A stretch of DNA of 64,000 nucleotides from Xylographa opegraphella (GCA_022813865.1 JALDZX010000015.1:62001-126000); one strand, 5' to 3'. Positions 2,263-57,509 are shown, numbered from the stretch's first letter. Numbers and translations: made by a program. The notes: a model not told the origin generated them from the letters alone.

Positions 2263-2600
2263 TCAACCATGGTTCCGGTCAAGTACCTGCGTCGCCGTGA
2301 TGACCTGCGTCAACCTTGGTCCACCACTCGGCCTTCGCTATCCTTCATACTTCATGTCAACATCGGTCCACCGCTTTGACATCACCGGACTTCATACTCC
2401 GCATCAAAACTCGTTGTCGTCCCTGGTACCAACGTGTATTCCTCACCTCCGCCCTACCCCGAGTACCACTCAACCTTGGTTACCCTAGATACCTGCGTCC
2501 CCTACTGCGCGTCAAACGTCGGTCCATCCCTTCGACTCGACCGTCCTTTCGCATTCCGCATCAACCTCGGTTGCCGTCCATGTACCTGCGCGTAACTCCT
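2263..2600. repeat. Degenerate ~47-bp-period tandem repeat, about 7 units
   Basis: Units beginning TCAAC/TCAAA..(G)GT start at 2263, 2310, 2357, 2404, 2470, 2512 and 2561. Internal words recur: TACCTGCG, CTTCATACT, TCCGCATCAA. Confidence 0.6.
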
Positions 2601-2649
2601 GCCTCCGCCCTCCCATGGTACCGCCTCCGCCCTCCCACGGTACCGCCTC
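2601..2649. repeat. 22-bp direct repeat x2.2
   Basis: GCCTCCGCCCTCCCA(T/C)GGTACC at 2601-2622 and 2623-2644. Confidence 0.85.
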
Positions 2650-5282
2650 ACGTGCCTCAGTCCCCATCTTACCCAAATCCAACAGCACTACCATTCCTCC
2701 CACCCCGCCACCTCGCCTCTCGGCATCCCCATCCAACCCCCTTCCACCCTACCCCCGGCGGTCTCACCCCCGGAGGCCGGCAACGCCAATCCCCTCACTC
2801 ACCACCCCTCCCCTCTCCTTCTCCACAGCCCCGCATCCCGCACCCTAAGCGCACCTATTCTACCCCCCGCCATTTCCACCAGACCCCTCGTCTCCCCCGC
2901 CACCCCACCGCGCTCGAGCCCTCCCCACCCCCGTCCCTCATGCCGGCCACCCACCGCTCTGACCACGCGGCGACGGCGTCCCCGGGTCCAGCGCTCGGTG
3001 GAAGACTGCGTGTAGGTTGGTTTTCATGGGTGCTCCATTCGTCCGGCGTGTCTGCGGCGTGTGTTGGGTGAAGGTGGGGGGAGGGGGTCGAGCGGCTGGG
3101 CGGGCCGGGGAGGGCCTGTGCGGTGGTGGGTGCGTGGCGCGGAGTTTTGGGCGCTGGGTGGATGCGGGCGGTGTAGACTGGGAGTGAGGGCGAGGATTGG
3201 GAGGGGAGAGGCGGGATGGGGAGGAGATGGAGTGAGGAGTCGTGGTGAGGGGGAGGGAGAGGGAGAGTGATAGCGGAGGGACGGTCGGCTGGGCGGGGAC
3301 GCGGAGCGCGGATGGCGGGGAGGGAAGAGGGAAGAGGGGGGAGCGTGACCGGCAAAGGGCGGAGGATGTAACACAGCGGAAGGGAAAGGCACAGAGGGCA
3401 TAGGCCGGGGAGGACAAACACAAAACCTACCCTCTACCGTTACAGACGGGCCGTGAAGAGTGACGGCTACAGCCGAGAGGGTGAGGAAGATTAGAGGGCT
3501 GGCTACGCTGTCTGCCGGACAACGACAGGAGCTTTCATGTGCACTACGTCCATTCCACGCCCGTACCCAATCTGTCCCGCACAGGTCGCATGATCTTGAT
3601 ACAATCAGCACCTTCTGCAGCGCTCACCCCGTACGGGCACGAGCTGGCAGTCTTCCATGCAGCGCGAGGCCTCGGGCCAAACCACCACTTGACCAGGAAT
3701 CGGGGTGGGCCCCTACAATTCCGCAGCTCGCTTCCCACCGCCGCGACGATGCGCCCCCGTTCAGCAGCAGCAGCAGTAGTAGTCCGTCTCGCGGCATGGG
3801 CAAGTCGACTCGGTATGGGAAAGTGATAACGCGATCTGCGGAAATGGGGGATACCCGACTCCTGTGCTGCAGATAGGGCACTGTTGTGCGACGCGAGTCC
3901 CCCGCGTGGTCATGGATGGGGGGAGTTCCGGTCCTTTTGCAGGAAGCGGCGGCGGGCATGGTGGTGGCGAAATTACCTACTGCGGTACTCCGTACCTACT
4001 CACCCACCCCATGCACATGATCCGTGCTTGCCCCGTTTCCTTGCCGCGACATGTTTCGGCCATGCTCGCTCTTGGCGCGGGCCCTGAATGATCGACGATC
4101 TACCCCCCCACCCCACTATAGTACCTTAGCTCGAGCAGGGTAGCCTGCTACCAAGAATGTCAAGTTGCACCCCCCCCCCCGGCGTGCAGATCCCTGCTCG
4201 TGGCCCCCCTGACGATATGAAAAAAGAAAGGGTCCGCGTCTTGGCTAAGACGGCCCGTTCTGCAATTCGCACGGTCGGAGGGTTGGGCGAGAGAGAGAGA
4301 GGGAGGGGGTGCGTGCGGTGCCCCAAACTACCTACGATTTGCCAAGTGCACCGCGGATGGGAGAATCGGGCGGCTCCTTCAGCGGAAAGAGTGGGAAGTT
4401 TTTAGCAGGCAACAATCAAAACCGGTGGTTACTGCTCTTTGGTAAGCGGGTCTGTCTGTCGGTACTTGGGTATAGGCATCATCGTTTTTCTTGTCTCTCT
4501 CATCTCTTGGCCATTCTTTACCACAGTACTGTCAGACTCCACCGGCGGGGGCGGCAAGGTCTTAGCCGGTGGAGGTCGAGACTTCAAGGGTCCACTATAA
4601 GTGGGCATTTTCGAGCGATTGGTTCCAAGCCGTTTTTAGGGTTTCGCCGGAACCTGGGTTAGCGCGGGTCGAGGATTTGGGCAAGGAAATTACAACAACA
4701 CGGAGTTTACAACAAGTAATCAAAATATACTTTGCATAACGTGATGAAAAAGGTCAAAGGCTCCTTGGGTATATAGCTAAAGCTCGAGATTAATGCGGCA
4801 CTGCATCGAAATGTATGAAGAAGTGCTGGCGATCCAAGTCAAAACACAAACGATTGCCGAGACGCTTGGTTTGACCCTGGTTTGTGCTTCGACATTCCCA
4901 AGCAAAGCATAAGGTATGCACTCCAATAGCAATGATGCGCGCCTGCGCAAGTTCAAGCCTGAAATGGCGCTGATAACCAAGTGCCCAAATGCTCCGAAAA
5001 ATACTCAGGCGTACTTAAGTCACATAGCTCGCAAAAAAATGACGTGATTAATATTGGCCCATGCAGCAAAACTCGAGCAGATAGTCGTTCGCATTGCGGA
5101 ACTAAACCAAGTTCCTGAACCCTTCTGCTCTGCGTAAAAGAACATCGTCGTGATCTTCCGAAAAGAAATGTAGATCTGACTTGACAAGGGGTGCCAGATC
5201 GTCGTGATAGCGCTGTCGGTACTTTTGCTCGCGTCAAACCAAGCCTCGGCTCGGAACGACCAAACTCCTTGTGTCTGTACAA

Positions 5283-55618: not shown

Positions 55619-56561
55619 TGTGACACCAAGCTAAAATCGATAGAAGTAATCGAGTAATTGATACTCCAGCAAGCAAGAATCCGAAATTGGATAAAACAAA
55701 AATAAGGAGGATGCGACGGAAATGCGAAATAAGCAGATGGAAGGAGTAGCGTTGTCGTCGAAATGACTAAGGAGAGGGTTCGACCGAGCCAATTGCGCGT
55801 CAGCAATTGCGTAGCAATAAAGAGGGGCTGGAGAAGTTGCGACCAGCTTTGCAGATTTGCGTAGGGCAGGCGAGCGCCAGAGTCAAGTTACCAAGGGAGT
55901 TCACGCCGCAGCTGGCAGGCCCGTGGGCCTGAAGTCGCACCCAACCCGGTAGGGGAAAAGCTGGGGAAAGGAACCGTTCCGGACTTGGGAGGCGGGGGCA
56001 TGGAACATCGGGGAAACATGATTGGGAGACTTTCGCTCATCAACAGCGAAATTCCGTCCACCATGCTTCCGTCGACGACTTATACATTGTCTTTCGGCGA
56101 TATGACTTGCCTGCCACGCTGAAATCTCCGTTCGAGATGCAGCAGAAATGAGAAAGAAACGGATTTTCAGAACGATTGGACGGGAGAAATCGGAAGAGAT
56201 CGGTGTGATGACTAAGCTAATCAAGAGAATTTCCCGTCGACGCTGCCCGGAAATCGTTTATCCGCGGCTTTGAGGCAAAAGAACAAAATAATAATTTCAC
56301 TGACTGACGACAACAAGCTTTCAAACTCCTGATCCTGCATAATAGAACTTTCTCGTTACGATACTCGATAGACTGTGTTCTTTCAGCAAGACCCTAGAGA
56401 TATCCTACACGGGATTCCACGGCACTGAACCTGTTTGCGCCCGTCACTTCCTCTTTTACACCATTACAAAAAGTCACACCACCGAGCATTTTTCACGGAA
56501 AATTTTCGCGACAAGACTCCCAAACCGCAATCTCACTCTCGTCTTCTACCACCTTCCGACT

Positions 56562-57137
56562 ATGCGAGTCTTCTCCTCGACCTGTACCTTCGATTACTCG
56601 TGGGAAGAAGTCTCCACCAACAACTGGCGCAAATACTGTCCGTGGAACGACAAAGCCACCCACGTTATCGCCGTTGACACCCTCTCGCGCTCGATCGACC
56701 CCTCCACCGGTGTCCTCCGCACCGAGCGCCTGATCACCTGCTCGCAGACCGCCCCGGCCTGGGTGCTCGCCCTTCTGGGCGGCACCAACACCTCCCACGT
56801 CTACGAGACTTCCATCGTGGACCCTGCGTCCAAACGCGTCACCATGAGCTCCACCAACCTCTCCTGGTCCAACATCATCAGCTGTCGCGAAACGGTCGTG
56901 TACGAGCCCGATGTCAATGCCTCCAGCCCGGGTCATGAGAGAACACAATTCCAGCAGGAGGCGAAGATTACGGCGCTGTGTGGCGGCTGGCAGAAAATCA
57001 GGACGAAGATCGAGGAGGCGAGTGTGGAGCGGTTCGGGCAGAATGCCCAGAGGGGGAGAGAAGGGTTTGAGGATGTATTGGAGATGTCGAGGAGGGCGTT
57101 CAGGGAGGAAGGAGAGCGGCGAGAGCAAATGGCTTGA
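56562..57137 (+). CDS. UPS2: PRELI/MSF1-domain mitochondrial lipid transfer protein, Ups2-like
   Basis: Contains FDYSWEEVSTNNWRKYCPWN, THVIAVDTLSR, GVLRTERLITC and RFGQNAQRGREGFE. Confidence 0.9.
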   Translation: MRVFSSTCTFDYSWEEVSTNNWRKYCPWNDKATHVIAVDTLSRSIDPSTGVLRTERLITCSQTAPAWVLALLGGTNTSHVYETSIVDPASKRVTMSSTNLSWSNIISCRETVVYEPDVNASSPGHERTQFQQEAKITALCGGWQKIRTKIEEASVERFGQNAQRGREGFEDVLEMSRRAFREEGERREQMA

Positions 57138-57509
57138 ACGATTGAGCGGAATGAGTTCGACGTTGTGCTGGCATTTAGCGACTGCATTGGAGGAACGGAG
57201 AAACAACCTGAGGGCCGGGATAAAGAGCATTCATGCATCGGGTTGGCGTTAGCTGGGGGTTGTTCCCCAATAGCAATTTTTCTCCCGCTTAGAACATCGT
57301 CTATCGTTCTTGAGTATTGTTTAGACTAATCCAGATAGACGATCTGATACTCTACGCATGGCGGGTGTAAGACGCAACTTTACTACACCAAGAAATATAT
57401 AATATTCTTTGGACGTTTAAATTAGGTGGACACGTGTGTCCTCACTGCGCAGAAATCAAGTGTCTTTTTTGATAATTTAATTTAAGAGCGGAGGGGCCCA
57501 CGCCAGCCT

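Follow-up and report, generated by a model that had tools for sequence, protein, structure and literature searches.

The question raised by a 64,000-nucleotide stretch of the genome of Xylographa opegraphella (GCA_022813865.1 JALDZX010000015.1:62001-126000; hereafter the window, positions being counted from its first letter) is which kind of process can generate GC-rich islands whose left half is C-rich and whose right half is G-rich on the same strand. A first-pass annotation, made from the sequence alone, had listed about ten such islands and attributed them to a position-specific, strand-asymmetric process acting in both directions from fixed points, with replication origins, recombination hotspots or R-loop sites as candidates. 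As analysed here, the islands look like an extreme form of the skew known at the ends of fungal genes, and not like a map of replication origins. We lean, with some reserve, towards each island being a domain of the size of a gene or transcription unit, C-rich from just upstream of the start codon and G-rich over its last few hundred bases and its 3' flank.

Recurrent C-to-G islands in the window

The composition of the window was profiled in 400-bp bins, and sign switches of the GC skew were called by a step scan with 300-bp flanks, a switch being considered strong when |G−C| was at least 50 in each flank; thresholds of 40 and 30 were also counted. Seven strong C-to-G switches were detected (2996, 17826, 24213, 31875, 39806, 53614, and 56956), while the same scan with the same flanks found no G-to-C switch in the window at this threshold. 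At thresholds of 40 and 30, C-to-G switches outnumbered G-to-C ones by 10 to 3 and by 13 to 5, respectively. When 300-bp blocks were shuffled 200 times, up-switches averaged 1.39 (maximum 4) and down-switches 1.25 (maximum 5). The recurrence of islands announced by the first-pass annotation is thus borne out, with a clear excess of one polarity over the other. Seven of its ten switch points correspond to strong switches, those placed at 18600 and 4230 are moderate and weak, respectively (Table 1), and the one placed at 25200 shows no change of sign (−7/+61).

GC content amounts to 58–70% in the islands versus ~50% in the background, and the 400-bp profile shows the skew of GC-rich patches moving from about −0.5 to about +0.6. 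In the profile aligned on island centres, which overstates sharpness because centres were picked by maximizing the step, mean skew is −0.3 to −0.5 between −500 and −200 bp and +0.4 to +0.6 between 0 and +300 bp, with a GC plateau of 0.59–0.68 from −400 to +300 bp and a skew that has faded by about ±500 bp. The 400 bp beyond the island edges show mean skews of only −0.01 and −0.07 and GC of 0.48–0.51.

The two halves differ by an exchange of C for G, with A and T nearly constant (A, C, G, and T frequencies of.194,.446,.198, and.160 in the pooled left halves and of.198,.155,.483, and.160 in the right ones). Four-fold degenerate sites summed over five genes likewise show no flip of the AT skew (A:T of 44:51 in left halves, 12:11 in right halves). 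Such a C/G swap on flat AT does not fit cytosine deamination, nor processes in which GC and AT skews go together, as they do in replication skew. Runs of three or more G inside islands fall in right halves in 124 of 141 cases and runs of three or more C in left halves in 131 of 140, and the same partition is found for G4-type motifs (6/6 on the right) and C4-type motifs (5/5 on the left).

Several simple origins for the islands were evaluated. The CpG-island logic, by which methylation would have decayed the background and spared the islands, was rejected, the observed/expected CpG ratio being 0.92 in the background and 0.62–1.00 in the islands. A foldback or inverted-repeat origin was also discarded, since only low-complexity matches of 14–34 nt (70–88% identity) were found, and none in two of the seven islands. 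The search for a central motif suggested by the first-pass annotation retrieved no common motif at the switch points above offset controls, and scans of the islands for known RNA genes gave 0 Rfam and 0 tRNA matches.

Neutral sites reflect a regional bias

The claim that the skew overrides codon usage is upheld, the signal being strongest at four-fold sites and being also present in introns, in flanks resembling untranslated regions (UTR-like), and in islands devoid of codon periodicity. Left/right four-fold skews are −0.33/+0.56 for the MAG-like glycosylase gene, −0.59/+0.75 for NUO-21, −0.54/+0.65 for PRELI, −0.39/+0.66 for the P-loop kinase-like gene, and −0.49/+0.78 for the C-terminus of the mitochondrial carrier (genes in Table 1), so that the skew does not vanish at four-fold sites, the outcome that the first-pass annotation had set as a refutation. 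Four-fold GC is 0.8–0.97 in the five coding islands versus 0.40–0.52 in 16 of 18 background open reading frames (ORFs), the two higher ones being ORF 24942-26228 (0.69) and the 5' part of the carrier gene (0.58); four-fold skew also lies inside ±0.2 in 16 of these 18 ORFs. Among this unskewed background are the sepH-like kinase, ABC1, and SWC4 ORFs, in line with what the first-pass annotation had said of neighbouring genes, while the 'FOL3' and 'bHLH' that it also named were not identified in Pfam scans of the window ORFs.

Introns inside islands match the half in which they lie, with skews of −0.66 and +0.38 for introns 1 and 2 of NUO-21 and −0.38 for that of the P-loop kinase-like gene. Three-base periodicity is absent in the islands at 2996, 24213, and 4272, their signal-to-noise ratios (S/N) being 0.4–1.1 (1.1 and 0.6 at 2996) versus 1.8–13.1 in ten coding halves. 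Since four-fold sites, introns, UTR-like flanks, and non-coding islands are all skewed, codon selection is not the cause; the skew is a regional substitution bias, and not selection on codons or proteins. This bias favours G and C over A and T at neutral sites, with C preferred in one domain, G in the other, and A and T remaining equal.

The bias acts at the level of the domain and has a sharp border. Among 551 four-fold sites ending in G or C, the fraction of G is set by the half and not by the context of ±3 codons (logit 2.44 versus 0.027), this regression leading us to reject local sequence context as the driver of the choice between G and C. That fraction, 0.17–0.30 between −450 and −75 bp, is 0.45 over the 75 bp preceding the switch, 0.79 over the 75 bp that follow it, and 0.83–0.95 over the next 300 bp, which places the boundary within ~150 bp. 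Amino acid composition is also affected in NUO-21, whose codon positions 1–2 shift by +0.62 versus +0.37 on average for 22 other sequences, with the three Xylographa sequences and Trapelia showing the four largest shifts; no such amino acid shift is visible in PRELI.

Islands are anchored to genes

Five of the seven strong islands each coincide with one gene and have their centres inside conserved coding sequence, none of these five being centred in a promoter. In all six coding units (carrier, histone H4, MAG-like, P-loop kinase-like, NUO-21, and PRELI) the coding strand is C-biased at its 5' side and G-biased at its 3' side; for H4, encoded on the minus strand, C-richness covers the coding sequence and the 5' region, and G-richness the last codons and the 3' flank. 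This orientation on the coding strand is unchanged by reverse complementation, so that genes of either orientation show C before G on the plus strand, with no need for a central point.

The domains also extend past the coding sequence. The 85 bp upstream of the ATG have skews of −0.43, −0.52 (PRELI), and −0.72 in the three genes tested, and the 120–180 bp past the stop codon are skewed by +0.36 to +0.67 in four of five genes, including PRELI (+0.36), the P-loop kinase-like gene (+0.42), and the carrier (+0.67). Limbs delimited by cumulative skew start between −661 and +234 bp from the 5' end of the coding sequence and end between +53 and +526 bp past the stop codon for the MAG-like, P-loop kinase-like, NUO-21, and PRELI genes, and at +624 bp for the weak EMP24 unit.

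The carrier gene is particularly informative regarding geometry, as its C-rich limb runs from 16517 to 17785 (1.27 kb), while its G-rich limb is limited to ~0.35 kb, namely the final ~145 bp of coding sequence and ~180 bp of 3' flank. Limbs so unequal are not expected of a process that reaches equally to both sides of a point. Thus, the regional strand asymmetry proposed by the first-pass annotation stands, and its bidirectional action from fixed centres does not, the units tracking genes instead.

Orthologues and lineage distribution

The PRELI alignment was scanned against metagenome contigs, providing 80 loci, of which 71 distinct orthologues were analysed at four-fold sites. A count over all third positions (74 of 80 loci with higher late skew) was set aside, the third base of two-fold codons being bound up with amino acid content. 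Pooled four-fold skew is −0.20 in the early part of the orthologues and −0.05 in the late part, so that PRELI orthologues overall show only a weak shift, in the direction of the average gradient described for fungal genes in 2011 (see below). A four-fold switch of at least +0.7 occurs in 11 of the 71 loci, the value in the window itself being +1.19. In a tree with named references, these loci represent 7 of the 10 in the clade with Lecanoromycete references versus 4 of the 61 outside it. The extreme form is limited to some units and enriched in the clade with lichen-forming (Lecanoromycete) relatives. High four-fold GC also occurs without a switch (L066, L073, and L021).

The PRELI island recurs in the orthologous gene of related metagenome contigs. 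One of them, L074, carries three adjacent islands within 3.5 kb (centres 2295, 3309, and 4788), with one gene under each: AIM5 (minus strand), PRELI (plus), and a 359-amino acid ORF (minus). Its two minus-strand genes likewise have a coding strand that is C-biased at the 5' side and G-biased at the 3' side. In its spacers GC falls to 0.44–0.46, and G-to-C switches are found there. No synteny of island genes was found between the window and L074 or L001.

Two loci on contigs of ~1.15–1.2 kb outside the Lecanoromycete-reference clade, L054 and L031, show strong switches (+1.19 and +0.96) at GC of 0.44–0.55, indicating that the flip can occur without a GC-rich island.

Relation to known skews

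McLean and Tirosh (2011, BMC Genomics 12:638, PMC3315797) describe fungal coding strands as C-biased at the 5' side and G-biased at the 3' side, at four-fold sites and in the flanks, with a flat AT skew and an effect on amino acid use, the cause being left open between mutation and selection. The islands share each of these features, including the nearly flat A/T and the shifted amino acids of NUO-21. On the contrary, that report deals with a gradient averaged over all genes of a genome and modelled by three gradual lines, in a list of species that contains no Lecanoromycete, whereas the islands reach ±0.5–0.8 at four-fold sites with four-fold GC of ~0.9, switch within ~150 bp, skip neighbouring genes, include non-coding units, and are lineage-enriched; an average gradient across many genes is not seen in the single 64-kb window examined. 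Fujimori et al. (2005, PMC555766) report that in plants and some fungi C exceeds G at transcription start sites, and the coding strand of the islands is likewise richer in C than in G immediately before the start codon (−0.43 to −0.72), but the skew of that work is a narrow start-site peak without a G-rich 3' counterpart or a GC-rich domain. A literature search found no published account of such islands in lichen fungi.

In vertebrates, GC-skewed CpG-island promoters and 3' ends reportedly form R-loops, in work attributed to Ginno et al. from 2012 and 2013. The present islands resemble them in being GC-rich at the kilobase scale, in their strand skew, and in their G-rich 3' ends, but at vertebrate 5' ends it is G that prevails on the coding strand, the opposite sign, and the islands there stand in a CpG-depleted background, as opposed to the ratio of 0.92 found here. 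A bidirectional promoter of the CpG-island type with R-loop skew, in which transcription would start at the centre and run outwards, was discarded in view of this background ratio and of centres that lie in coding sequence in five of the seven islands.

Origin of the islands and alternative explanations

The gene-sized domain that we favour would be set by transcription, with an initiation and elongation zone opposed to a zone at the 3' end, an idea that McLean and Tirosh put forward for their much weaker average gradient. A process by which bases of every kind become G on whichever strand is more exposed could produce both the high GC and the skew; one candidate is that C is inserted across from damaged or missing bases where R-loops leave DNA single-stranded, with antisense transcripts possibly acting on the 5' part. 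R-loops or hotspots, both put forward by the first-pass annotation, may be involved. More tentatively, lichen-forming Lecanoromycetes may carry a lineage-enriched substitution process acting on whole domains, which in selected units of ~1 kb would bring neutral sites close to saturation (four-fold GC of ~0.9) and flip the favoured base from C to G over at most 150 bp, in both coding and non-coding DNA.

Several observations weigh against the transcription-unit reading. Its mechanism is something that we only infer; it does not account for what sets island genes apart from the genes next to them; and two strong islands, those at 2996 and 24213, are non-coding, so their transcription is putative. 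The MAG-like island comprises the first ~1,040 bp of the gene and stops within the coding sequence, ~170 bp before the stop codon, the 3' flank being unskewed (−0.06). From first to last third, four-fold skew follows no consistent trend in the 18 background ORFs, hence not the genome-wide gradient of the 2011 paper. The late-minus-early difference at four-fold sites has a median of +0.06 over the 71 PRELI orthologues, with 38 positive and 33 negative values. The PRELI tree, built on a 191-amino acid protein, is weakly resolved; three loci inside the Lecanoromycete-reference clade (L016, L022, and L034) lack the switch and four outside have it. Finally, in three near-identical contig pairs with 286 differences, few and unpolarised, C/G transversions are not in excess in the limbs, where they account for 6/45 and 3/29 versus 24/212 in the background.

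Among the alternatives, the one that best withstands the data, although we judge it unlikely, is a stable meiotic double-strand-break hotspot at each switch, where GC-biased conversion would raise a GC peak of ~1 kb and strand-asymmetric processing would leave opposite skews on its two sides. The GC plateau of ~0.8–1 kb, with the four-fold GC contrast given above, is on the scale of conversion tracts, and non-coding islands would be natural; furthermore, intragenic hotspots have been reported in another ascomycete (PMC5844332), and strand-asymmetric mutation is documented around human hotspots (Hinch 2023, PMC7615360). With such hotspots and with the GC peaks that biased conversion leaves at recombination hotspots, the islands share an elevated neutral-site GC at the kilobase scale and an asymmetry that changes sign at a point. 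Nonetheless, the human signature (changes of the types C>N and A>N, C>G and A>G among them, in the 3' tail left single-stranded) would, with the polarity as we deduce it, give islands G-rich on the left and C-rich on the right if the break lies at the switch, the reverse of those seen. Limb ends follow start and stop codons and are not symmetric around a break, the carrier limbs are very unequal, the L074 array has one island per gene, and no coding island is centred in a promoter.

Somewhat less probable still is that the G-rich limb corresponds to the C-rich 5' zone of a putative antisense RNA, or, equivalently, that sense R-loops in the 3' half and antisense ones in the 5' half expose opposite strands. 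Such convergent transcripts, a mechanistic variant of the transcription-set domain, would account for the symmetry of the islands, for their sharp, collision-like boundary, for the non-coding islands, and for the G-runs on the strand leading away from the centre; the unequal limbs of the carrier, on the contrary, would require a very long antisense RNA.

Breaks in the nucleosome-free gaps that flank short genes, with resected strands mutating to G, so that DNA would become C-rich to the right of each gap and G-rich to its left and the switch would be the meeting point of the two influences, appear improbable. Their polarity would agree with the human hotspot signature (PMC7615360), short genes would be covered entirely, and the L074 array does have G-to-C switches in the AT-richer spacers between its tandem islands. 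However, mirror symmetry would be expected at the gaps, while the outer 400 bp are unskewed and lack a GC rise, which counts against a bidirectional process centred on intergenic gaps, and overlapping resection tracts should blur a switch that is sharp (~150 bp).

C-to-G polarity is typical of bacterial origins and of human skew jumps, and it is this likeness that speaks for replication origins at the switches, with a G-rich leading strand on each side. The idea is nevertheless contradicted, and very improbable, considering that (i) the skew is gone ~0.5 kb from the centre, far from replicon scale, (ii) the coupled T>A skew is absent at four-fold sites, (iii) L074 holds three islands within 3.5 kb, each on a gene, and (iv) no central motif common to the switch points was found. 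Equally hard to sustain is selection, be it through codon usage, the structure of the mRNA or the speed of transcription, favouring C-ending codons early and G-ending ones late, for which McLean and Tirosh offer an adaptive C-avoidance model (PMC3315797) and which the presence of housekeeping genes (H4 and the complex I subunit) among island genes might suggest, since introns, flanks, and islands without codon periodicity carry the same skew and background ORFs lack any codon bias.

The cause of the fungal 5'-C/3'-G skew has been open since 2011, the skew having been studied only as a weak average, while the signal described here is strong enough in a single gene to show where the domain ends, how sharply it switches, and how introns behave. 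Because the same gene has the skew in some lineages and lacks it in others, comparative and population tests are directly feasible. Should the domains mark exposure of opposite strands, either as R-loop and antisense zones or as the sides of a stable break site, sequence by itself would provide a readable map of such zones, and the islands would be a natural system for finding the cause of the fungal skew. In such genomes, codon usage, amino acid composition (as in NUO-21), and selection tests will be locally distorted.

Individual islands and neighbouring features

Table 1. Skew islands, switches, and associated genes in the window, with skews or steps given as left/right values.
Feature	Position	Strand	Switch or centre	Details
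Non-coding island, the strongest	2500..3400		~2996	Left skew −0.54, right +0.60; GC 0.68
Weak non-coding switch	3990..4420		near 4272	−44/+33; no periodicity
Mitochondrial-carrier gene	16517..18150	+	17826	ORF 16283-17971; Pfam Mito_carr 1.5e-45
Histone H4 unit	18282..19606	−	18599	Step −46/+53; named by reading the translation
Non-coding island	23900..24560		~24213	Skew −0.59/+0.32; no periodicity
HhH-GPD DNA glycosylase (MAG-like) gene	31280..32330	+	31875	Pfam HhH-GPD 1.2e-14
P-loop kinase-like gene	39290..40130	+	39806	Partial model 39263-39405 + 39473-40097, start codon unsettled
Unnamed ORF	41130..42635	−	41333	Moderate switch near the 3' end of the ORF
Complex I 21-kDa subunit (NUO-21) gene	53230..53990	+	53614	Coding sequence 53270-53988, two introns
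PRELI/MSF1 (Ups-like) gene	56480..57260	+	56956	Coding sequence 56562-57137, clean translation; Pfam PRELI 1.4e-40
EMP24/GOLD gene	59693..60391	+	60202	Weak switch; Pfam match

Regarding the non-coding islands, the three largest ORFs tested around that at 2996 (2304-3071+, 3457-3876+, and 1776-2192+) gave no Pfam match. Its C-rich limb contains, at 2391-2644, diverged direct repeats of 35 nt spaced by 157 bp (71% identity) together with a 22-bp unit repeated twice (95%), and low-complexity expansion may contribute to this island. Upstream of the island at 24213, a G-rich patch (23610-23720) is followed by a G-to-C switch at 23902.

The carrier protein continues past its three Mito_carr repeats with a C-terminal extension of ~200 amino acids, rich in alanine and threonine and encoded wholly within the GC-rich part of the gene, whose strong codon periodicity (S/N 13.1) indicates that it is coding. 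Just 5' of the stop codon, in the G-rich limb, a single N at 17927 interrupts a run of more than 10 G; it is probably due to a homopolymer base-calling problem, and renders the C-terminal residues of the ORF uncertain.

The MAG-like gene model (coding sequence 31300-32378 + 32430-32496) translates cleanly. The 'P-loop' label of the kinase-like gene comes from a GSGKT motif read by eye, this gene having no Pfam match. The gene model of NUO-21 also translates cleanly, its homologues carry the name '21 kDa subunit of NADH dehydrogenase', and its exon 2 is 92% and 91% identical to the X. carneopallida and X. trunciseda proteins, while the PRELI protein is 96% identical to a Xylographa parallela protein; these identities place the DNA in a Xylographa-like lichen-forming fungus. 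In several Lecanoromycete assemblies the homologues of NUO-21 and PRELI are two locus tags apart (e.g., MMC30_003268/MMC30_003270 and Q9223_000725/Q9223_000727), so these genes, at 53270 and 56562 in the window, seem to be long-standing neighbours. For EMP24/GOLD, four-fold skew by thirds of the gene is −0.54, −0.09, and +0.22.

Long stop-free frames are present on both strands of the islands (2300-3700, 17500-18300, 31200-32600, 53200-54000, and 56350-57330; the minus strand, for instance, has one of 192 amino acids at 2855-3433), A/T-rich stop codons being scarce in these places, and gene predictors may call spurious proline- or glycine-rich proteins in them.

Pfam matches in the window include HeLo, DUF7580, mitochondrial carriers, PRELI, ABC1, and a SANT/DAMP1 protein, a set that points to a filamentous ascomycete. 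The first two belong to a plus-strand ORF of 1,108 amino acids (11294-14620) without island composition, in which an N-terminal HeLo domain (prion-inhibition/propagation) and DUF7580 are accompanied by a weak kinase-like match, a predicted architecture of the fungal cell-death or incompatibility type.

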